In this document: positions 4,880 to 40,946 of the stretch, piece by piece | Position numbering within the stretch: position 1 is the stretch's first letter | Layout: every line of letters begins with the position of its first letter | From: Candidatus Krumholzibacteriia bacterium | Lineage (GTDB): Bacteria; Krumholzibacteriota; Krumholzibacteriia; Krumholzibacteriales; Krumholzibacteriaceae | NCBI GenBank assembly: GCA_963836185.1 | Contig: CAWIIQ010000001.1 | Span: 1,568,001 to 1,632,000 of the forward strand | Length of the DNA stretch: 64,000 nucleotides | Direction: 5' to 3' | Notes under the pieces: generated by a model | The model's database searches: none | Told to the model about the DNA's origin: nothing | Seen by the model: the letters and a program-made list of their open reading frames with translations, nothing else | Translations under genes and position numbers: made by a program

Positions 4880-6856
4880 ATGTCTGAACGTATTGGTGTA
4901 TACGTCTGCCACTGCGGCACCAACATCGCAGGCAAGGTAGACATCGACGAGGTGGTCGAGTTCGCCAAGGGACTCGATGACGTCACGCTCGTGAGGGAAT
5001 ACAAGTTCATGTGTTCCGATCCCGGGCAGGCACTCATCCAGAAGGATATCGAGGACGGTCTCGTCAACAGGGTCGTCGTCGCTTCCTGCTCGCCTCTGAT
5101 GCATGAGAAGACATTCAGAAACGTCTGCACGCGCGGCGGACTTAACGAATACCTCTTTACGATGACGAACATCCGTGAACAGTGCTCATGGGTACATGTC
5201 GATGAAGCGGAGACGACCGATAAGGCGAAGGACCTTATTGAGGCTTCCGTTCGAAGAGCCGCCCTCCAGGAGCCGCTGACCAAGCGCGAGGTCCCGATCA
5301 ATCCGCAGACCCTCGTTATCGGCGGCGGTATCGCCGGCATCCAGGCCGCGCTCGATCTCGCCGACGCCGGCAAGAAGGTCGTCCTCGTAGAGAAGGAGCC
5401 CTCGATCGGCGGTCACATGTCGAAGTTCGACAAGACCTTCCCAACCCTGGATTGTTCCGCATGTATCCTGACGCCGAAGATGGTCTCCGTCGGCCAGCAT
5501 GAGAATATCGAGCTTCTCTCCTGGTCGGAGGTAGAGGATATCAGCGGGTATGTAGGCAACTTTAATATCAAGGTCCGAAAGAAGGCGCGTTACGTCGACG
5601 CCGATCTCTGCAACGGCTGCGGGGCCTGCTGGGAGAAGTGTCCGGGAACGCGCGTTCCCCGCAAGGGAAACATACATGAGAAGCTCTCGCTCGGGCCCAC
5701 GACATCGATCTATATGCCGTTCATGCAGGCCGTGCCGGCGATCCCCGTGATCGATTCGACTACCTGCATCAGGTTCAAGAATGGCAAGTGCGGCATCTGC
5801 GCAGATGTCTGTGAGCGCAATGCGATCAAGTATGACATGGAGGACGAAATCGTAGAGTTCGAGGTCGGCAATATCATAATGGCGACTGGATTCCAGACCT
5901 TCGATCCTGAGCCGGTCAAACGGTACGGATACGGAAAGCTCGACAACGTGATGACCGCGCTTGAGTTCGAGGTAATGAACTGCTCCTCGGGTAACACGGG
6001 CGGCAAGATCCTGATGGCTGACGGGGAAGAGCCCAAGTCGATCGGGATCGTTCACTGCGTAGGCAGCCGGGACAAGCATTATAATGAGCACTGCTCGAGG
6101 GTCTGCTGCATGTATTCGCTGAAGTATGCCCACCTGATAAAAGAGAAGCTCGATGCAGAGGTCTACGAGTTCTATATCGACATGCGGTGTTTCGGCAAGG
6201 GATACGAGGAGTTCTACGACAGACTTCTCGGCGAGGATGTCAGGTTCGTCCGCGGCAAGGTCGCCGAGGTTACCGAGGTCCCGATCGAGGAAGCCGAGAA
6301 GGGCAAACTTGTAGTCGAGGTCGAAGATACGCTCGTCGGTACCGTAAGGCGTGTACCTCTCGACATGGTCGTGCTGTCAACGGGCCTGGAGGCTCACGAG
6401 AGCCTGCCCGATATCGCGGGGCTCTGCAGCGTCAGCCTGGGCAAGGACGGGTTCGTGATCGAGAAGCATCCGAAACTCGGTCCTGTCTCGACAGCGACGG
6501 ACGGTGTCTTCATCGCCGGCTGCTGCCAGTCGCCCAAGGACATCCCCGATACCGTCGCTCAGGCGTCAGCCGCTTCGAGCGCGGTCCTTTCGATGATAAC
6601 GAGGGAGAAGATCGAGATCGAATCCGCTACAGCATCGGTCGACGAGGACAAGTGCTCCGGCTGCAAACTGTGCAACTCGCTCTGCCCGTACCTCGCTATC
6701 AAGTTCGATGAGGAAAAGGGCGTTTCAGTTGTGAATGAGGCGTTGTGCAAGGGTTGCGGTACATGTGCCGCGGGTTGTCCGAGCAACGCGATCTCAGCCA
6801 AGCATTTCGAAGACAGACAGATCTTCGCCGAGATAAAGGGTATTCTTTCGGCGTAA
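4880..6856 (+). CDS. hdrA: Heterodisulfide reductase subunit A (FAD, Fe-S)
   Basis: GVYVCHCG.NI N-terminus, GGGIAG FAD motif, FDKTFPTLDCSAC, HCVGSRD..CSRVCC, inserted and C-terminal ferredoxin domains. Confidence 0.95.
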   Translation: MSERIGVYVCHCGTNIAGKVDIDEVVEFAKGLDDVTLVREYKFMCSDPGQALIQKDIEDGLVNRVVVASCSPLMHEKTFRNVCTRGGLNEYLFTMTNIREQCSWVHVDEAETTDKAKDLIEASVRRAALQEPLTKREVPINPQTLVIGGGIAGIQAALDLADAGKKVVLVEKEPSIGGHMSKFDKTFPTLDCSACILTPKMVSVGQHENIELLSWSEVEDISGYVGNFNIKVRKKARYVDADLCNGCGACWEKCPGTRVPRKGNIHEKLSLGPTTSIYMPFMQAVPAIPVIDSTTCIRFKNGKCGICADVCERNAIKYDMEDEIVEFEVGNIIMATGFQTFDPEPVKRYGYGKLDNVMTALEFEVMNCSSGNTGGKILMADGEEPKSIGIVHCVGSRDKHYNEHCSRVCCMYSLKYAHLIKEKLDAEVYEFYIDMRCFGKGYEEFYDRLLGEDVRFVRGKVAEVTEVPIEEAEKGKLVVEVEDTLVGTVRRVPLDMVVLSTGLEAHESLPDIAGLCSVSLGKDGFVIEKHPKLGPVSTATDGVFIAGCCQSPKDIPDTVAQASAASSAVLSMITREKIEIESATASVDEDKCSGCKLCNSLCPYLAIKFDEEKGVSVVNEALCKGCGTCAAGCPSNAISAKHFEDRQIFAEIKGILSA

Positions 6857-32235: not shown

Positions 32236-32250
32236 TATCCCCGGCAACAG

Positions 32251-32568
32251 CTAACGGATAAAGAACATCACCGCGACGGCTCCCATTCCGAGCAGCGCGA
32301 GCACCGACACCGATATGATCCCCGCCATCATTATCGTACGGATGAGCATCAGTCTTTTGGCTTCCTTGTAGGCTTCCATCTTGTCCTCCCATGTAAGTGG
32401 AACAGGCGCGTCGCCGGGCAGCTTCATACCTGCCGTCTCTTTCGCCATCTCAGCCAGTTCGGGGTCCGTGTCGAGGTATTCCCTTACCAGCTTCTTCGTG
32501 TCATCGCTCGCCTCTTCCTCGATGTAGAGCGGAAGCAGGTCGATTATCACATTCCTCGTAACCTCCAT
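32251..32568 (-). CDS. Membrane-anchored anti-sigma factor
   Basis: I.DLLPLY...AS..T...V ASD-like N-terminus and C-terminal TM; directly follows the ECF sigma gene. Confidence 0.75.
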   Translation of the reverse strand: MEVTRNVIIDLLPLYIEEEASDDTKKLVREYLDTDPELAEMAKETAGMKLPGDAPVPLTWEDKMEAYKEAKRLMLIRTIMMAGIISVSVLALLGMGAVAVMFFIR

Positions 32569-32569
32569 A

Positions 32570-33052
32570 TCAGGAAACCTCCTTTTTCATCCTGTCAGCG
32601 AGCAGCCTTTTTCGTACTCTGTGGACCTTTACCTTCGCAGATGCGAGAGAGAGCCCTAGAATCCGGGCAATATCGGTGTATGGCAGTTCATGTTTTACAC
32701 GGAGCACGAACGCGGTGCGGTCGCACTCGTGCATAGTAAGCAGGATCTGTTCGATCCTGCTCAGCTCATGTCTCGATTCTGTCACCCTGTCTGGGCCGGG
32801 AGAGGGATCGGAGTGAATGTCATCCAGGTCAGCCATGCGGCTCTCTTTCCGCAACTGCATAAGGTACAGGTTTCTCGCTATCGATATGAGGTAGGCTTTG
32901 AGTGTCTCAGTCCTGATATCTTCCCTGCGCGTCCAGGCTCGTATGATGGTCTCGGATGTGAGATCTTCCGCCTTCGCCCTGTCCCGGGAGATCCAGAGAG
33001 CGAATCGGTAGACGTCCTGAGAGTATGAATCGTACAGTTCCTGAAAATCCAT
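32570..33052 (-). CDS. ECF RNA polymerase sigma factor
   Basis: Region 2 (AEDLTSET..RAW, YL..IARN) and region 4 (Y.DIA.ILGLS...KVKVHR.R). Confidence 0.9.
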   Translation of the reverse strand: MDFQELYDSYSQDVYRFALWISRDRAKAEDLTSETIIRAWTRREDIRTETLKAYLISIARNLYLMQLRKESRMADLDDIHSDPSPGPDRVTESRHELSRIEQILLTMHECDRTAFVLRVKHELPYTDIARILGLSLASAKVKVHRVRKRLLADRMKKEVS

Positions 33053-33211
33053 CGTCATCCCTTCTCTGAGAATACTATGCATGAGAGGGGCAAAAGTTAC
33101 AATCAGGCGTGCATGAGGATTGTAAGGTGGATGGAATAAATGGGAGTGACGGGGGCCTCTGGCCCTGCCCCCGTGCATTTCAGGGGCGGGAGGCGGGAAC
33201 GGACTTTTAAT

Positions 33212-33239
33212 TTGAATTTGCCCGAAGGCGTGCTATAAT
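33212..33239 (+). promoter_or_regulatory. Putative sigma70 promoter with extended -10
   Basis: TTGAAT-N16-TATAAT, with TG one base before the -10. Confidence 0.55.
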
Positions 33240-33378
33240 CCCGCTGACGATTCTCAAGCGGAATATCAGAAAAAAATGATCAAAAACGAAACCCATCCGG
33301 GCGTAAGGGTTGCACCTGTCATTGCGTACAGGTGTGCCTACTCCATTTCACCACTATTCACATGAAGGAGGCAGAGCC

Positions 33379-35790
33379 ATGCGTATGAAGAGTAAGATCC
33401 TGATAGCCATCGTCTCATTGATAATGTTTCTGGGGACTCCCTCTCTTAAGGCTTTATGGATCGAGGATGGTATCGTAGTATGTACTGCAAGCGGTGTCCA
33501 GTATTTTCCCCGGATCATATCGGATGACCATGATGGTGCGATTATCGTATGGGAGGACGCCCGTGATATGTACCAGATGGTCTATGCACAGAAGGTGGAT
33601 TCCCATGGAAACGTTCAGTGGGTATCCGATGGTTTGTCCCTCACCACCGGGATAGAGGGGGACCACCAGTCCCCTGCGATGGCATCGGATGGTGCCGGCG
33701 GCGTGATCGTCACCTGGCACGATACTCGGAATTCATCTGAAGACATCTTTGTACAGAGAATCGATGCGGCAGGCAACGTTATGTGGGGACCTGGTGGGAC
33801 AGCAATCTGTACTGCCGCCGGAATGCAGTACAGTCCCGCTATCACGGCAGATGGCTCAGGTGGTGCGATTATTGTATGGGAGGACCTTCGGACCGGCGGT
33901 ATCAGAGACATCTACGCGCAGAAGATCGACGCGATGGGTGCCGTTCAGTGGACAGTTGACGGTGTGGCAATATGTACCGCTGCATTTAACCAGTATGATC
34001 CGAAAACCGTTTCAGACGGATCGGGCGGTGCGATCATCACGTGGCAGGATAACCGTAATTCTGAACATGACATCTATGCCCAGAAAATAACCGCGAGTGG
34101 CAATATCTCCTGGACGGCTGACGGCGTGCCGGTTTGCATTGTCTCTGGTGGACAGGATTACCCTGATCTTATTTCAGATGGTGGGGGTGGAGCGGTCATT
34201 GCCTGGTGGGATGAACGTGGGGGGCAGCATGATATCTACGCGCAACGTATACTCCATACTGGATCTGCCAGGTGGACCACTGGTGGTGTTCCCGTATGCG
34301 AGGCTGCCGGGAGCCAGGCGCTCCCCAGATTAGTCCCGGATGGCTCAGGCGGTGCAATCATCTCCTGGCATGATTTACGCGGTGCAACCGTTGATATCTA
34401 TGCCCAGAGGATTGACACATGGGGCAATGTCCTGTGGACGGTTGACGGCGTAGCCGTCTGCACGGCAGTTGGAACACAGGCCTATCCGGAAATCGCGCGG
34501 AACGGTACCGGGGGTGCGATCATCACATGGCAGGACGAACGTAGTTCGAACAGGAACATCTATGCACAATGTATAGATGCCGATGGAGACGTCCAGTGGG
34601 CGACTGACGGGGTGGCGCTCTGCATGGCCGGCTTGAACCAGTCCTATCCGATGATCGCTTATGACGGTTCGGGTGGTGCGATCGTCACATGGGAGGACAA
34701 TGGAAATGTCAACATCTATGCGCAGAGGATCGAGCGCAATGGCTACTGGGGCTACCCGGGTCCATATATACTGGCCGCACGGGATATCCCCGGCGATCAG
34801 GGAGGATTCGTAAACCTCTCCTGGGAGGCGAGCCGCCTTGATCCATGGCCTGAACAGGGCATCTCCAGCTATACCGTCTGGCGAGCTATCGGGGCGACAG
34901 GGATGGCTCCCATGATAGATGATGATACAGTCATCCTGACAGACATGTCTGATCTCAGCCATGGGATGGATGGGACTGTATTGCGTATGGAACAGACACC
35001 GACCGGCAATTTCTACTGGAAACTCATCTCGACGATCGATGTCTATTACCTTGAGTCATATTCGGAGATCGTCCCTACGCTTTTCGATTCGACCGCAACC
35101 AGCGATGAGCACCACTATTTCCAGGTGATCGCACATACAAGCGACCCTCTGGTATTCTGGATATCACCGCCGGACAGTGGATACTCGGTCGACAATCTCG
35201 CGCCGGCGGCTCCGCTGAGCTTCGCCGGAGAGCAGCTGTTTGTGCCTGAGGGACTGCAGCTGACCTGGGACCCAAACAACGAAACGGATCTCGCAGGCTA
35301 CAACATCTACCGTGGGACGAGTGAATCGTTTGAGCCCGGACCGGGCAGCTTTTTGACCTCGACGCCCGACACCTTCTCTCTCGACGATGGGTGGGACTGG
35401 TCAACGGGTTACTGGTACAAGGTCGCTGCCGTAGATGTCCACGGCAATGAGGGCGATTTCGCGGCGCTGGGTCCGGACATGCTCACTGGCGATGATCCAA
35501 AGCCGCTGCCCGACGCGTCATTCCTCGCGCAGAACTTTCCCAATCCCTTCAATCCACAGACTATGATCCGCTTCGGATTGAAGGAGGCATCACATGTGTC
35601 GCTGAGGATCTACGATCCGGCAGGGCGACTTGTCCGGGTGCTTGTTGACGGGCAGAGAGATACAGGGCAGTACGAGGAGCGATGGGGCGGGCTTGATGAT
35701 GCAGGGAGGAGTGTAGCAAGTGGCATCTTTTTCTACCGCCTTGTCGCCGGCAATTTCGTGCAGACCAGGAAGATGGTTTTTCTACGATAA
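33379..35790 (+). CDS. Secreted 8-repeat (probable beta-propeller) protein with Fn3-like and C-terminal FlgD-Ig/T9SS-like domain
   Basis: AAGGAGG SD; signal peptide; eight ~54-aa W..DG..VC...Q..P....DG.GGAII.W.D.R...DIYAQ repeats; C-terminal QNFPNPFNP...ASGIFFYRL...RKM. Confidence 0.85.
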   Translation: MRMKSKILIAIVSLIMFLGTPSLKALWIEDGIVVCTASGVQYFPRIISDDHDGAIIVWEDARDMYQMVYAQKVDSHGNVQWVSDGLSLTTGIEGDHQSPAMASDGAGGVIVTWHDTRNSSEDIFVQRIDAAGNVMWGPGGTAICTAAGMQYSPAITADGSGGAIIVWEDLRTGGIRDIYAQKIDAMGAVQWTVDGVAICTAAFNQYDPKTVSDGSGGAIITWQDNRNSEHDIYAQKITASGNISWTADGVPVCIVSGGQDYPDLISDGGGGAVIAWWDERGGQHDIYAQRILHTGSARWTTGGVPVCEAAGSQALPRLVPDGSGGAIISWHDLRGATVDIYAQRIDTWGNVLWTVDGVAVCTAVGTQAYPEIARNGTGGAIITWQDERSSNRNIYAQCIDADGDVQWATDGVALCMAGLNQSYPMIAYDGSGGAIVTWEDNGNVNIYAQRIERNGYWGYPGPYILAARDIPGDQGGFVNLSWEASRLDPWPEQGISSYTVWRAIGATGMAPMIDDDTVILTDMSDLSHGMDGTVLRMEQTPTGNFYWKLISTIDVYYLESYSEIVPTLFDSTATSDEHHYFQVIAHTSDPLVFWISPPDSGYSVDNLAPAAPLSFAGEQLFVPEGLQLTWDPNNETDLAGYNIYRGTSESFEPGPGSFLTSTPDTFSLDDGWDWSTGYWYKVAAVDVHGNEGDFAALGPDMLTGDDPKPLPDASFLAQNFPNPFNPQTMIRFGLKEASHVSLRIYDPAGRLVRVLVDGQRDTGQYEERWGGLDDAGRSVASGIFFYRLVAGNFVQTRKMVFLR

Positions 35791-35985
35791 CGAGTATCGT
35801 CAAGACAAACACGCCCTGGCGACGCAATTCAACCCAATCGAGCGTCGGGGGGACACCATTTGATTGGCTGATCGGGTGGACTTCCCCCGGTTCACTAGAC
35901 ACTCTATTACGATGCCTAGGAGAATACGTCCAAGGGTTACAAGAAGGAGACGCAAGGCTGATCCGCCTAACTCATTGGAAGTAAA

Positions 35986-36040
35986 TGGTGCCGGAGCCGG
36001 GAATCGAACCCGGATGAGGTTGCCCCCAGGGGATTTTGAG
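35986..36040 (-). repeat. tRNA-Leu 3'-half copy (att-like junction, distal)
   Basis: 52/55 identical to 40860-40914; identity ends at the anticodon loop. Confidence 0.92.
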
Positions 36041-36219
36041 ACGGGAAACCGAGTATTTGGAAATCGTTGATTTTCAACTACATATATCCGACAACAGAAT
36101 CTGAGAACGATTTGAATATGTTCGTTTTTGTACGAATATGTTTGATGTTATCAGGCACAATTTAGGCACAATTCTCATGCTACAATCATTTTGACACCCG
36201 CACCTGCCTTGGCTAGAAT
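36041..36219 (+). repeat. Conserved att-arm module, copy A
   Basis: IHF-like GAAATCGTTGATT (36060), GAATATGTT at 36114 and 36134, AGGCACAATTTAGGCACAATT (36153-36173), promoter. Confidence 0.85.
36191..36219 (+). promoter_or_regulatory. sigma70 promoter at the end of arm A, facing the cargo
   Basis: TTGACA-N17-TAGAAT, ending 9 bp before the kinase ATG. Confidence 0.7.
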
Positions 36220-36228
36220 CATCTCACC

Positions 36229-38614
36229 ATGCTAGGGGAAACAATATCTCATTATAGAATCTTAGATAAGCTCGGACAGGGCGGGATGGGTATGGTCTAT
36301 CGTGCAGTTGACACGAAGCTGGACCGCAAGGTGGCAATAAAGTTCCTGCCCGTTCATCTAAGCTCTGATCCCGATGCGACAAAGAGGTTCATACACGAGG
36401 CTAAGGCCGCCTCGGCGATCGATCACTCAAACATCGGGACGATCTATGAAATAGATGAGACCGAGGATGGAGTCACTTTCATCGTAATGGCTCTCTACGA
36501 CGGAGAGACACTTCGCGAGAGGATTGACAGAGGAGAGCTCAGTGTAGAGGAATCGATCGATATAGCATCCCAGATCGCCTCTGGCCTTTCAAAAGCACAC
36601 CAGAAGGACATCGTCCACAGGGACATAAAGCCATCTAACATAATCATCACGAGCGATGGGGAAGTGAAGATAATCGACTTCGGACTGGCCAAGCTTGCCG
36701 GCCGGACGAGACTGACCAAGGAGGCGAGTACGCTCGGAACAGCCGCCTACATGTCGCCCGAGCAGGCAAGGGGGGAAGAAGTAGATCACCGATCTGATAT
36801 TTTCTCTCTCGGAGTAATGTTCTACGAGATGCTTTCCGGTGAGCCTCCTTTCAAGGGTGAACACGAGGCGGCGCTTCTCTATTGTATAGTCCATGAGGAA
36901 ATAAAGCCGATCTGTGAGATTCGACACCAGCTGCCAGACACTCTGGCAGAGATAGTGTGTAGGTGTCTCGCGAAGGAGCCATCGGACCGCTTCGGGCATA
37001 CATCAGAGCTTGCCGCGCGCCTGAAGGAATTTTCCATGCAATCTTCCGGCGGCTCGTACAGGAAGCCGAGCGGGAATAGCATGATCAGGAAACTTCTGGT
37101 AATTCTCATCATCGCTGCATGCCTGATCGCTATCAGTGTGTTTGTCGTAAAAAGGTTGACAAGAGATCATATCGAAATAGAACAAAAACTGACCGCTGTG
37201 GACAACGAACTGGCCCGGCGCTGGAGCCATTCAATAGCAGTGCTCCCCTTCAGGGATTTTAGTTCCGGACAAGACCAGGCACATGTCTGCCTGGGTATAA
37301 CTGATGCTGTAAACGGTATCCTGTCGGAAATTCACGAGCTCAAGGTCATTTCGACCACATCTGTGATGAAGTTCAAGGAAACAGAGACTGATATAAAGGA
37401 TATAGGGGCCGATCTAGGAGTTGGAAATATTCTGGAAGGAACTGTTCAAAAGGAAGGAAACAGGATACGAGTCAGGGCGCAGCTCATAGAGACGGAGACC
37501 GGTTTTCACCTGTGGGCTGACACGTACGATGAGCGTTACGAAAACGTGTTTGAGGTGCAGGACAAGATTTCGCATGCGATAGCGCAGGCATTGAAACTCG
37601 AGCTGGTCCAGGGCTCGAAAAGATCCGCTGAGACCCTGCGAAGCAACATCGAAGCGTACGAGTACTACACGAGGGGGATATATCTCGTTAAGAGCAAATA
37701 CGTGATCACATTCGAAGAAGCTGACTTCCAGGCCGGGATCGATGCTGCATCGGACTATAGAGATCGATCCAAATTACGCAATGGCGTATTTTGGATTAGT
37801 CTGGGCCTTTGAGCACCATTTCCAGGTGACTGACAGCAAGAGCGACGCCGATAGTGTGAAATATTATGCCGAGAGAGCATATGCTCTGGATCCTGAGTCG
37901 GCGACAATGAACGCGATGAAGGGATATGTTCTCTACGTACACGAAAATGAACGCGATAAAGCCTTTAAGTATTTGCAGAAGGCTCTCGAGATCAATCCCA
38001 ATATCGGCGATGTGAACTTCCTGGCAGGTACATGTCTTCTCTACCACGGGCTGTACGAGCAAGCCTTGAGATTTCTACAGAGGTCTTCATCACTGGACCC
38101 TTATTACTTCTGGACACCATACAAGATCGCTATCTGCTACATGAACATGGACGATTTCGAAAATGCCGCACATTACTTCGAGGAATATTTTGAGCTGGCA
38201 CCAGTGGCACTCATGTTTCCGGGCAGATATATTTCTCTCATGGTACAGATGAACAATCTCGAAAGGGTCGAGGAACTCATCAGCGAAATGCAAAAAACAC
38301 ATCCGAACTATGGCGGGTTACCTTACTGCAAGGCCCTGCTCTTCGCTGCACGTGGAGAGAAGAAAGAAGCGCTGGCCCTTTATAGAAATTCCGCGATACT
38401 GGCGATGCTCGATATGAAGGATGAAGCAATAGCGGCTCTGAATAGAGAGATCCGTGGAACGAGAAGAAATCCCTTCATATTCTACAGGGATCTGCTCACT
38501 AATCCTTTTTACAACAACCTAAGGGATGATGATCACTTCAAAGAGATGCTGGCAGGAGAACAGGACTTGTACGACGAGACTGTTGCAAAGTACAGCTACT
38601 TCAATGACCTGTGA
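36229..38614 (+). CDS. Hanks-type Ser/Thr kinase + TM + TolB-N-like + TPR domains; frameshift near 37741
   Basis: LGQGGMG, VAIK, HRDIKPSN, DFGLA, YMSPEQ; TM; SIAVLPF domain; TPR ORF 37742-38614 continues in the +1 frame. Confidence 0.88.
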
Positions 38615-38645
38615 CAATACTTCGATGGAATATGTCGGGTAATAA

Positions 38646-38700
38646 TGGTGCCGGAGCCGGGAATCGAACCCGGATGGAGTTGCCCCCGGGGGATTTTGAG
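38646..38700 (-). repeat. tRNA-Leu 3'-half copy (att-like junction, middle)
   Basis: 55/55 identical to 40860-40914. Confidence 0.95.
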
Positions 38701-38877
38701 ACGGTACATAGAGTATTCGTAATTTATTGATTTTCAACTATATATCCGGCAACAGATTCTGAAGGCGTTTTGGATATATTCGTCTTTGTTTGGATATATT
38801 TGATATTCGTAGGCACAATTTAGGCACAATTCACATCTTCACGTTGATTTGACACCCAGGCACTGCACATGTAGTAT
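38701..38877 (+). repeat. Conserved att-arm module, copy B
   Basis: Consensus IHF site TAATTTATTGATT (38720), TTTGGATATATT at 38769 and 38789, AGGCACAATTTAGGCACAATT (38811-38831), promoter. Confidence 0.85.
38849..38877 (+). promoter_or_regulatory. sigma70 promoter at the end of arm B, facing the cargo
   Basis: TTGACA-N17-TAGTAT at the same relative position as in arm A. Confidence 0.65.
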
Positions 38878-38937
38878 CAGTACATCTTCCTAGGAAAAAC
38901 TACAAAAGCTGAATACCAGGGGCACAGGGGGAACACA

Positions 38938-39813
38938 ATGGGCAAGAGAATATTGCTATTGATCGCATCGGTCTTCATCGCAGGTGCTTCAGCGCACCAG
39001 GTCGTGAAAGCGGGATCGGAGCCACCAGCAAAAGGTGCTGCTGATATAGCCTCGCCCGGGCACTCCCAGGATATCAACAAGATCGTGGCCTTTGGAGACA
39101 GTTTTACAGATAACGGTCATGTTGATGGCCACGGCTTTAACAGAGATACAAATGGGAAAGTCTGGGTCGAATATTTATCGGATATGCTGAATTGTGATAA
39201 TTTGGACAACAGGGCTTGGGGTGGTGCTAGAACTGATTCAGGTCATTTTGCTGGACTGGATTGGTCGGGTTTCAATTGGCAGGTTGAAAACTATTCGATG
39301 ACATCTGAACCAGCAAAAACTCTTTATACAATCAGGATCGGAATAAACGACTACTGGGATGCAAAAGATGATCCCGCTCGCTCGGTATCAAATATTTAGA
39401 AAGGAATTCAAAGGCTAATTGAAAAAGGAGCAAAGAGGCTTGTCGTTTTTAACAACTTTGATCTGACATCAGCGCCAGGATATGGTCCGGAAACTGAGTA
39501 TCATGATCTAATACCGCAAGTTCGGGTATTGATATCTGAGTTCAACGATGAAATATCTGAAATGTTATTGAATGAAGAAACCGGATTAATTGTGAAATCC
39601 CCTGATGTAGAGATCACATTCATCGATATTTTTACTTTTATGAATGAATTGATCAAGAGTGAAAAATATTCGAATACTGATACCCCCTGGAAGGACTCGT
39701 ACAAATTTCCTCACCCTGATGAATTCTTATGGTATGACGAATGGCATCCAATGACCAGCTGCCACTTGGAAATTGCAAAATTTGTCCACAAGAAACTGGA
39801 ATTGAGAAAATAA
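38938..39813 (+). pseudogene. Secreted SGNH/GDSL hydrolase interrupted by an in-frame TAG (39397-39399)
   Basis: Signal peptide, FGDSFTD, AWGGA, GIND before the stop; the same frame continues KGIQRLIEKGAKRLVVFN...YDEWHP. Confidence 0.8.
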
Positions 39814-39867
39814 GGCGTTTACAATACAAAGGGTTCAACGTTTTGTTAACAGAAGGAGGAGTTAAAA

Positions 39868-40824
39868 ATGAAGAATACCTTTAATCGCAGAACGTTCTTA
39901 AAATTGGGTGCTCTCTCTTCCGCTTCTTTTATCGCATCCAGAAATTTATTTGGAATGAATCATCCTTTTACGTTGATATCTGAAAATGAAGGAGAATCAT
40001 GCCGTTTTAAGATTGGTGATCTTGAATGCTATTGTATAAACGACGGTGGCTTTGATTATGGTTATGACCACTTTTTTAAAAATGTCCCTGAAGAACAAGT
40101 TGAAAAAGTCTTAAGTGAACATAACTTACCTACTGGACCTATTTATACACCCTATACACATCTTATTGTTAAAAATGGAGAACAACTGATTCTTGTTGAT
40201 ATGGGAGCCGGGAATGTGTTGCCAAATAATGGCAAACTACCCATTACCATGAAATCTATCGGAATTGAACCATCTGAGATAGATACCATCATCATTACAC
40301 ACGCACATCCTGATCATATTGGTGGTACGCTTGATGATAAGGGAGAGCCTGTTTATGCCAATGCTCGTTACTATATGTGGAAAGGCGAGTGGGATTTCTG
40401 GTTTTCTGATAAGGCCTTTGACAAAACCTATGAATTCTTTGTGAATACAGCACGTGAACAACTCAGTCCCATCAAAGACAGGATGAATTTTCTAGAAGAA
40501 GAATCCGAGATCTTTCCCGGAGTTAACATAATCGAAGCTTCCGGACATACTCCCGGTCATATAGTCGTGTCATTTTCCTCAAAAGATGAACACCTATATT
40601 ACATCGGGGACACAGTATTATATCCTTTGCATCTGGAATATCCTGATTGGTTACCCATATATGACATTTTGCCCGATAAGGCCGAGGCCAGTAAAAGGAA
40701 GATTTTCGATCTTGTTGCGAGGGAGAACGCCTGGGTAATAGGGCAGCATTTTGTTCCGTTTCCAAGTCTCGGGCACGTAGTAAAAAAGGGAGATGGATGG
40801 CTGTTTCAGCCGATAAAGAAATAA
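39868..40824 (+). CDS. Tat-exported MBL-fold metallo-hydrolase (lactonase/organophosphate-hydrolase-like)
   Basis: AAGGAGG SD; NRRTFLK Tat motif; THAHPDHIGG, GHTPGH, GD, distal H. Confidence 0.88.
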   Translation: MKNTFNRRTFLKLGALSSASFIASRNLFGMNHPFTLISENEGESCRFKIGDLECYCINDGGFDYGYDHFFKNVPEEQVEKVLSEHNLPTGPIYTPYTHLIVKNGEQLILVDMGAGNVLPNNGKLPITMKSIGIEPSEIDTIIITHAHPDHIGGTLDDKGEPVYANARYYMWKGEWDFWFSDKAFDKTYEFFVNTAREQLSPIKDRMNFLEEESEIFPGVNIIEASGHTPGHIVVSFSSKDEHLYYIGDTVLYPLHLEYPDWLPIYDILPDKAEASKRKIFDLVARENAWVIGQHFVPFPSLGHVVKKGDGWLFQPIKK

Positions 40825-40859
40825 CGGCAGGAGGATCTGCCTGACCCGTTGATACCAAA

Positions 40860-40946
40860 TGGTGCCGGAGCCGGGAATCGAACCCGGATGGAGTTGCCCC
40901 CGGGGGATTTTGAGTCCCCTGCGTCTACCAGTTTCACCACTCCGGC
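40860..40946 (-). tRNA. tRNA-Leu(CAA)
   Basis: GCCGGAGTGGTGAAACTGGTAGACGCAGGGGACTCAAAATCCCC...GGTTCGATTCCCGGCTCCGGCACCA; 87 nt, long variable arm, encoded CCA. Confidence 0.97.

Follow-up and report, generated by a model that had tools for sequence, protein, structure and literature searches.

Putative attachment-site arms beside displaced tRNA-Leu(CAA) halves in a Candidatus Krumholzibacteriia genome

The interval 36041-36219 is likely to be the element-side arm of an attachment (att) site whose neighbour is a displaced tRNA-Leu(CAA) 3' half, and the tandem AGGCACAATTT that it carries is probably the arm-type docking site of a heterobivalent tyrosine integrase. All coordinates refer to the window, which is the whole stretch of DNA that was analysed (64,000 nucleotides of contig CAWIIQ010000001.1 from a Candidatus Krumholzibacteriia bacterium). 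The cassettes that bear such arms kept their flanking att-like sites, and integration and transfer genes were absent from them. They are best read as CIME-like integrase-less islets, which would be relics unless an integrase from elsewhere acts on them in trans.

The array at tRNA-Leu(CAA)

The array is anchored by an intact tRNA-Leu(CAA) gene, which was called by ARAGORN and Rfam, as was the tRNA-Ala(GGC) gene beside it. Two displaced copies of its 3' part lie upstream, and both have 55 nt in common with the gene, from the CCA end through the 7-nt anticodon loop. The loop reads TTTTGAG on the plus strand at 36034-36040 and 38694-38700. The identity with the tRNA stops exactly there, and both copies then switch to ACGG and a common arm. 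A 27-mer of the tRNA-Leu 3' part matched the window three times (35987, 38647 and 40861) with 0 matches expected, and the alignment gave three direct copies of the 3' part, which form a duplicated core as att sites do at the ends of an element. The sequence-only reading had described this interval as the arm of a lambda-attP-like site and had missed both that its "core" is the displaced tRNA-Leu(CAA) 3' half, with the junction at the anticodon loop, and that its last 29 bp (36191-36219) are a promoter. The anticodon loop is reportedly among the tRNA sublocations that Williams described in 2002 for tyrosine integrases. The features of the array are as follows.

35945-35985, no strand assigned: about 40 bp with homology to 40820-40859; a degenerate tRNA terminator copy
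35986-36040, minus: displaced copy A, tRNA-Leu(CAA) 3' part from the CCA end to the anticodon loop (alignment; two mismatches with the intact gene)
36041-36190, plus: arm A, a P-type arm that starts with ACGG (alignment; ACGG is common to all five arms aligned below)
36060-36072, plus: IHF-like box A, GAAATCGTTGATT, one mismatch to YAANNNNTTGATW (motif match)
36114-36142, plus: two 20-bp-offset boxes GAATATGTT of arm A, starting at 36114 and 36134 (direct match)
36153-36173, plus: tandem AGGCACAATTT-AGGCACAATT (that is, AGGCACAATTTAGGCACAATT) of arm A, predicted Int arm-type sites (motif search)
36191-36219, plus: sigma-70-type promoter A, TTGACA-17-TAGAAT, 11/12 consensus, facing the kinase gene
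36229-38614, plus: cargo A, Ser/Thr kinase with TPR repeats in two frames, with a frame break near 37745-37812
38646-38700, minus: displaced copy B, tRNA-Leu(CAA) 3' part (alignment; no mismatch with the intact gene)
38701-38848, plus: arm B, containing an IHF-like box, 20-bp boxes and the tandem
38720-38732, plus: IHF-like box B, TAATTTATTGATT, exact match to YAANNNNTTGATW (motif match)
38769-38780 and 38789-38800, plus: two 20-bp-offset boxes TTTGGATATATT of arm B (direct match)
38811-38831, plus: tandem AGGCACAATTTAGGCACAATT of arm B, predicted Int arm-type sites (motif search)
38849-38877, plus: promoter B, TTGACA-17-TAGTAT, 10/12 consensus (promoter scan)
38878-40824, plus: cargo B as a whole, with a kinase-start remnant, a lipase fragment, a small ORF and a hydrolase
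38938-39399, plus: GDSL-lipase fragment of cargo B (domain match)
Between the lipase fragment and the hydrolase: small ORF of cargo B
39868-40824, plus: MBL-fold hydrolase of cargo B (domain match)
40860-40946, minus: intact tRNA-Leu(CAA), the anchor of the array (ARAGORN and Rfam)

Neither ARAGORN nor Rfam called a tRNA in copy A. Rfam found two tRNAs in the window and nothing else, so the arm corresponds to no known RNA family. Beyond the three cores and two arms, no further core, arm or P'-type flank was found in the window. The degenerate terminator copy at 35945-35985 is also homologous to the sequence just downstream of tRNA-Leu in two genomes of the same genus (G005 and G002), and a terminator-like hairpin lies downstream of the intact tRNA-Leu at 40841-40826 on the minus strand.

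Each displaced copy is followed by about 180 bp of arm and promoter. Only two copies of the arm were found in the 3.5-Mb genome, both of them in the window. Direct matching confirmed all three sets of motifs that the sequence-only reading had placed in these arms, namely an IHF consensus about 20 bp in, a direct repeat with an exact 20-bp period and an invariant tandem, as well as the divergence of the sequence between them. The arms have an A+T content of 67-71% and are about 80% identical (79% across query positions 8-156, rising to 82% once the tRNA part is counted as well), with the differences concentrated between the motifs.

The IHF-like boxes each begin 19 bp past the last base common to the tRNA. 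Exact matches to YAANNNNTTGATW numbered three in the window against 0.99 expected, and five of 100 shuffles reached three; a single match to the IHF consensus is therefore not beyond chance when taken alone. It is plausible from the placement of the box that it serves as a bend site, and the genome has three genes of the HU/IHF family. The 20-bp repeat was less easily obtained by shuffling, since a run of that length at any offset from 5 to 40 appeared in 15 of 1000 shuffles of arm A and one of 1000 of arm B. As the two arms are homologous, this repeat counts as one inherited feature and not two. The boxes differ between the arms at two positions (GAATATG versus GGATATA), and both boxes of an arm have the same variant, which means that the boxes of arms A and B changed in concert.

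The tandem was the rarest of the three motifs. At up to three mismatches, AGGCACAATTTAGGCACAATT matched the window twice with 0 matches expected, and the copies at 36153 and 38811 are the sole such tandems in the 3.5-Mb genome. The two AGGCACAATTT repeats have an 11-bp period, lie 108-112 bp from the anticodon loop and are unrelated to the core sequence. The tandem AGGCACAATTT-AGGCACAATT is very likely to be an integrase arm-type site. A second tandem, on the P' side, was absent from the window cassettes.

Promoters A and B were the top two plus-strand matches in the 5.5-kb region scanned, and position 36219, at which the interval drawn by the sequence-only reading ends, is the last base of the -10 box of promoter A. 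Both cargos look decayed. Three-frame translation of 37700-37830 in cassette A showed that frame 0 of the kinase-TPR gene ends in ...FWISLGL and a stop, and that frame 1 goes on with TPR-like sequence (...IEIDPNYAMAYFGLVWAF...), which indicates either a frameshifted pseudogene or an assembly error. A tblastn search of cassette A with the 967-aa kinase of G017, a relative described below, matched the kinase domain only, and the frameshift was confirmed instead by the translation. Arm B aligns for about 20 bp (38878-38900) into the kinase start, where the ATG is lost, and is unrelated thereafter. Since arm B keeps this remnant, cassette B derives from a kinase unit by deletion or replacement and was not formed by joining independent cargo at the promoter.

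The region downstream of tRNA-Leu(CAA) is a variable hot spot. The PMT_2 gene is separated from tRNA-Leu by 8.6 kb in the window (32236-40860), whereas G003 has about 1.2 kb there and G007 about 100 bp; the array was missing from this locus in both relatives, and G003 has no arm. The window interval also holds an ECF sigma factor and a FlgD_ig-domain protein. In four genomes of the same genus (G001, G002, G005 and G006; loci L030, L010, L031 and L024), the contig ended 0-510 bp downstream of tRNA-Leu(CAA), as would be expected if repeats lie there. One further genome, G014, was set aside because its short tRNA-Leu(CAA) 3' fragments are not accompanied by a homologous arm. These fragments (positions 2943-2980 and 5300-5320 of locus L028) lie 2.4 kb from the intact gene and directly beside it, and have the look of scars that separate events left at this tRNA.

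The population data consisted of 20 public sequencing runs, none of which contained more than 0.32 of the sampled words. Runs X1, X2, X4 and X5 gave short contigs of low depth, and none of these joined across a whole cassette. One 159-base contig of run X4 (depth 3.8) joins about 38942 to 39771, and could come from a strain that does not have the lipase fragment, although so thinly supported a contig does not count as evidence.

Conservation of the arm and spread of its tandem

Homologous arms were sought in 41 genomes, comprising the window's own (G000) and 40 relatives. Beyond the window genome, only G017, from another genus of the same family, has the arm; the remaining matches were to the tRNA only, apart from a weak 22-bp match in G004. 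The G017 arm is 71% identical to that of the window, precedes a kinase paralogue and lies in a row of at least three tandem kinase genes. G017 also has a second tandem, AGGCACAGATCC-AGGCACAATCC, on the opposite side of each tRNA fragment. [quoted passage not shown] A metagenome scan was conducted with a junction-plus-repeat pattern that required GATTTTGAGACGG and the first AGGCACAA. It gave five matches, of which two (L075 and L076) were true arms; the other three (L077-L079) were rejected as chance matches in GC-rich or coding DNA.

The arms A, B, G017, L075 and L076 were aligned. These five come from only four sources, and because L075 and L076 were retrieved by the GATTTTGAGACGG/AGGCACAA pattern, those columns were forced in two of the five rows. 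Mean pairwise identity was 0.85 in the tRNA part, 0.39 in the spacer from the junction to the IHF-like box, 0.67 in that box and 0.60 from there to box 1 of the 20-bp repeat. It was 0.70 in box 1, 0.53 between the boxes, 0.66 in box 2 and 0.48 from box 2 to the tandem. The tandem itself reached 0.93, with 18 of 21 columns invariant, followed by 0.59 from the tandem to the -35 hexamer and about 0.38 in the promoter spacer. The least conserved spacers (0.38-0.48) are about as similar as third codon positions of the adjoining kinase genes (0.39-0.52) and the motifs stand above them, which argues that these spacers are about neutral and that conservation is motif-selective, as the sequence-only reading had supposed from two arms. 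We infer, as it did, that the motifs may have been kept under selection for recombination. The promoter hexamers were judged by invariant alignment columns instead of block identity, and since the -35 hexamer is invariant and the -10 is TAGNAT in all five arms, the promoter accounts for part of the conservation.

The individual motifs fared differently across the five arms. The IHF-like box is at the same place in four of them, being exact in B, G017 and L075 and having one mismatch in A; L076 has two mismatches. The 20-bp repeat was absent from G017, L075 and L076, where 996, 104 and 975 of 1000 shuffles, respectively, reached the best run. The earlier suggestion that this repeat provides Xis-like sites for a directionality factor is thus not supported as a general feature of the arm.

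Next to the arm as a whole, its tandem was followed across bacteria by scanning one genome per species for the exact 19-mer AGGCACAATTTAGGCACAA. There were 34 genome loci in at least seven phyla by record titles, compared to about 4 expected by arithmetic with equal base frequencies, and the viral scan gave one locus (L080). The record titles named Clostridia, Eubacteriales and Christensenella; Moraxella, Psychrobacter and other Gammaproteobacteria; Alphaproteobacteria; Desulfobacterales and other "Deltaproteobacteria"; and Acidobacteriota, Nitrospinota, Muribaculaceae and Candidatus Krumholzibacteriia. A complete tRNA or tmRNA gene lay within 300 bp of the 19-mer in 20 of the 35 loci (the 34 genome loci and the viral one), and a complete gene or a tRNA fragment lay within 350 bp in 25. 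Only one of 51 control windows, taken 2.8 kb away at the same loci, was near a tRNA or tmRNA. The cross-phylum identity of this arm-site 19-mer is the most interesting by-product of the analysis. The tandem was not found in the portion of the literature that was searched by sequence, where the 12 papers with the 11-mer concerned, judging by title and abstract, unrelated subjects.

Of 130 ORFs with 180 aa or more that lie no further than 2.5 kb from the 19-mer, 54 were scanned for domains, and within that sample tyrosine integrases (PF00589) were present at six loci (L034, L044, L046, L057, L059 and L062) and the arm-binding domain PF12167 at three (L034, L054 and L062). At L044 and L057, the integrase reading frame traverses the tandem (...RHNLGT...) at the 3' end of the ORF. 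Three to four repeats of the motif were seen at L034, L040 and L043, and copies flank a tRNA piece on both sides at L046, L047 and L080.

Three of these loci have layouts of their own. At L046, in an alphaproteobacterium, 14 bp separate the end of the integrase ORF from the 3' end of a complete tRNA-Lys. The ORF includes a separate single copy of the motif, and the tandem lies 124 bp past the tRNA-Lys 5' end, on the opposite side from the integrase; the layout resembles an attP that encloses a whole tRNA. At L040, in Nitrospinota, a tRNA-Leu(CAA) fragment is separated from three copies of AGGCACAATTT by a second tandem, three copies of AGTCAGGT with an 11-bp period, located 140 bp ahead of the motif. 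An outward promoter-like site and small ORFs follow beyond the tandems, and this arm may hold two sets of sites. The viral contig L080 has three AGGCACAATTT-AGGCACA tandems within 300 bp around a tRNA-Lys(CTT) piece, one on one side and two on the other.

Integrases and competing explanations

Integrase loci of relatives have the geometry of the window arm. On contig C68 of G017, the integrase stop is followed directly by AATTGTGGCTAAATTGTGGCT (AATTGTGGCT twice), which is the window motif on the other strand with one change, and a tRNA 3' fragment lies about 110 bp past the tandem. This integrase sits at a tRNA other than tRNA-Leu(CAA). On contig C51 of G006, which belongs to the window's genus, the end of an integrase gene is followed by a different tandem of 11-bp period, about 130 bp and a tRNA 3' half that begins at the anticodon loop, and in G028 an integrase end is followed by a tandem of another 11-mer and then tRNA-Leu(TAA). 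Read in the orientation of the tRNA, the window arm likewise consists of the tandem, about 108 bp, the anticodon loop and the tRNA 3' half. The N-terminal 75 residues of the integrases of the relatives and of Moraxellaceae could be aligned, with a shared pattern of ...R..G...F/W..Y...K..RE. Repeats beside arm-domain integrases were seen in other genomes only and not in the window genome.

A search of the window's ORFs with PF00589 found no integrase. In the genome, PF00589 gave four matches, all outside the window. The N-domain scan covered two of them, which had SAM_1 or SAM_4 N-domains and no arm domain; the other two are open frames of 313 and 338 aa. When six motif-linked integrases were compared with the genome by tblastn, the matches were distant (24-27% identity) and were obtained only with the L059 integrase, the sole query with a SAM_1 N-domain. 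Integrase L057 as query had matches at E <= 1e-10 in eight of the 41 genomes, and the window's own genome was not among them. Neither PF12167 nor the N-domain profile A3 matched the genome, where the only control for A3, G017, is itself a row of that profile. Thus, an arm-binding integrase was not found in this genome, which is 92.5% complete, so its absence is not proven. Neither the element nor the genome yielded a Xis gene, and no integrase-bearing element with window-type arms was seen at tRNA-Leu(CAA). As regards mobilisation in trans, the G017 integrase has a tandem of its own that is one base off that of the window.

If the arm works as proposed, the N-terminal domain of an integrase would bind the tandem, and its core-binding and catalytic domains would bind the anticodon stem-loop. 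The roughly 110 bp that separate tandem and loop would be folded, much as happens in lambda attP, by a bending protein that occupies the IHF-like box 19 bp from the loop. The cassettes would be integrated islets that lost or never had an integrase and were stacked by accretion at the tRNA, like cis-mobilizable elements. Present-day movement would depend on an integrase acting in trans, since the searches of this genome gave none of the arm-binding kind. As an alternative, the sites would be relics, with the right-hand part surviving as the promoter of the cargo. The sequence-only reading was partly supported, in that the stretch reads as an att-side arm and its tandem fits Int arm-type sites; the missing arm-binding integrase is the weakest point of the att-arm reading.

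The same gap favors an account that we consider possible but doubtful, in which the att remnants are real, a single kinase islet was amplified by unequal homologous crossing-over between the tRNA repeats, and the copies then diverged with the arms as passive relics. This account is compatible with an att origin. The units are paralogous, G017 has at least three kinase units in tandem, cassette B derives from a kinase unit by deletion, and the 55-bp repeats together with the arms provide homology for unequal exchange. However, the tandem is invariant even though the spacers and third codon positions are near saturation, which argues for continuing selection over passive decay. Kinase A is also closer to unit 1 of G017 (85% amino-acid identity over 170 residues) than units 1 and 2 of G017 are to each other (72%), and so the units are either old or moving between genomes. 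The kinases of G000 and G017 are 75.5% identical over 274 aa, compared to 59% for GlmU and 53% for PMT_2. This gap was set aside as evidence of transfer because it could also reflect conservation of the catalytic domain.

Transcription offers another explanation of the conserved motifs. The arm could be the promoter and operator of a tandemly amplified kinase family, with the AGGCACAATTT repeats bound by a transcription factor such as a winged-helix response regulator and the att ancestry irrelevant now. The tandem lies 19-21 bp upstream of the invariant TTGACA in all five arms, its 11-bp period fits an operator, and the same Ser/Thr kinase start (MxGxTISHY) follows four of the five arms, with a remnant at arm B. 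This arrangement means that the conservation could serve transcription, and the promoter scores of 11/12 and 10/12 and the lack of a cognate integrase among the matches in the genome point the same way. We nevertheless judge this explanation improbable. The identical 19-mer lies by a tRNA or tmRNA in 20 of 35 loci of unrelated phyla where there is no such kinase, it falls inside the 3' end of an integrase ORF at L044 and L057, the start of the arm coincides exactly with the junction at the tRNA anticodon loop, and no candidate regulator was identified.

That the motifs are chance matches in AT-rich intergenic DNA is scarcely credible, because none were expected for the tandem or the core, homologous arms exist in three other sources (G017 and two metagenome contigs) and the 19-mer is strongly linked to tRNA genes, so that chance is refuted for tandem and core and remains for the IHF-like box taken alone, whose count is unremarkable (three matches against 0.99) in arms this rich in A+T.

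Known systems and meaning for the phylum

The att arms of lambda contain the arm-type sites P1/P2 and P'1-3, the IHF sites H1/H2/H' and Xis sites. The window arm resembles lambda attP or attR in that the core sequence differs from the tandem direct repeats of the arm, some 110 bp with a bend-site consensus separate these repeats from the crossover, and related elements have integrases with an N-terminal arm-binding domain. In contrast to lambda, the core in the window consists of a tRNA anticodon stem-loop, an outward-facing promoter of the cargo closes the arm, the Xis-like 20-bp repeat is not conserved, and the element has no integrase or Xis gene, nor was one found in the genome. Tycheposons of Prochlorococcus are said to be tRNA-anchored islands that accumulate cargo bounded by partial tRNAs. 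They differ from the window array in lineage and integrases, and the likeness is one of general layout and not of arm sequence. Like integrons, the array lines up small cassettes in one direction at a fixed site, and these have no recombinase of their own. It was rejected as an integron because the window has no integrase, its sites are pieces of a tRNA and the promoters lie in the cassettes; unlike integrons, it has no IntI gene, attI, Pc or folded attC sites.

The window array is a new case of something already known, namely arm-type att sites and tandem islets that have no integrase at a tRNA gene. CIMEs, according to PMC5704250 (citing Pavlovic 2004 and Bellanger 2011), keep attL and attR, are devoid of integration and transfer genes and stack in tandem at the 3' end of their target gene. 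The window units also keep att sites, have no integration or transfer genes and are stacked in tandem. They are unlike CIMEs in that they are only 2.2-2.7 kb long, hold one or two genes and come with a promoter of their own, no functional relative of the ICE or IME type was seen with window arms, and the lineage is Krumholzibacteriia and not streptococci. The Dehalococcoides islands at ssrA, as described in PMC3146451, form rows that follow a single small-RNA gene, with direct repeats of the 3' end of that gene as the bounds of each island, and some do not have integration genes and are discussed there as possible CIMEs. The window array is likewise a row at one small-RNA gene with direct repeats of its 3' end. 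By the same source, the Dehalococcoides islands rely on a large serine recombinase, and their 20-bp repeat is not accompanied by arm-type sites, compared to a tyrosine-integrase type with a 55-bp tRNA part and arms in the window.

A bolder extension, which we regard as unlikely, is that AGGCACAATTT is a pan-bacterial arm-site "address" for one widespread family of integrase N-domains, with promoter-bearing single-gene kinase cassettes of Krumholzibacteriia being inserted, excised and shuffled in trans at tRNA-Leu(CAA). If this were true, it would amount to an integron-like cassette system built from tRNA attachment sites. Should the 19-mer prove to be a conserved arm-site code, it would provide a cheap marker for the borders of islands and for pairing integrases with their sites.

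In the preferred att-arm reading, an exotic-looking repeat would be explained as the footprint of site-specific integration at tRNA-Leu(CAA), and its anatomy is corrected, with a tRNA half as the core and a promoter at the end of the arm. Units of a promoter and a kinase with complete att-like sites recur in the window genome, G017 and two metagenome contigs. With them, a little-studied phylum adds a case to the integrase-less cassette arrays at tRNA genes.
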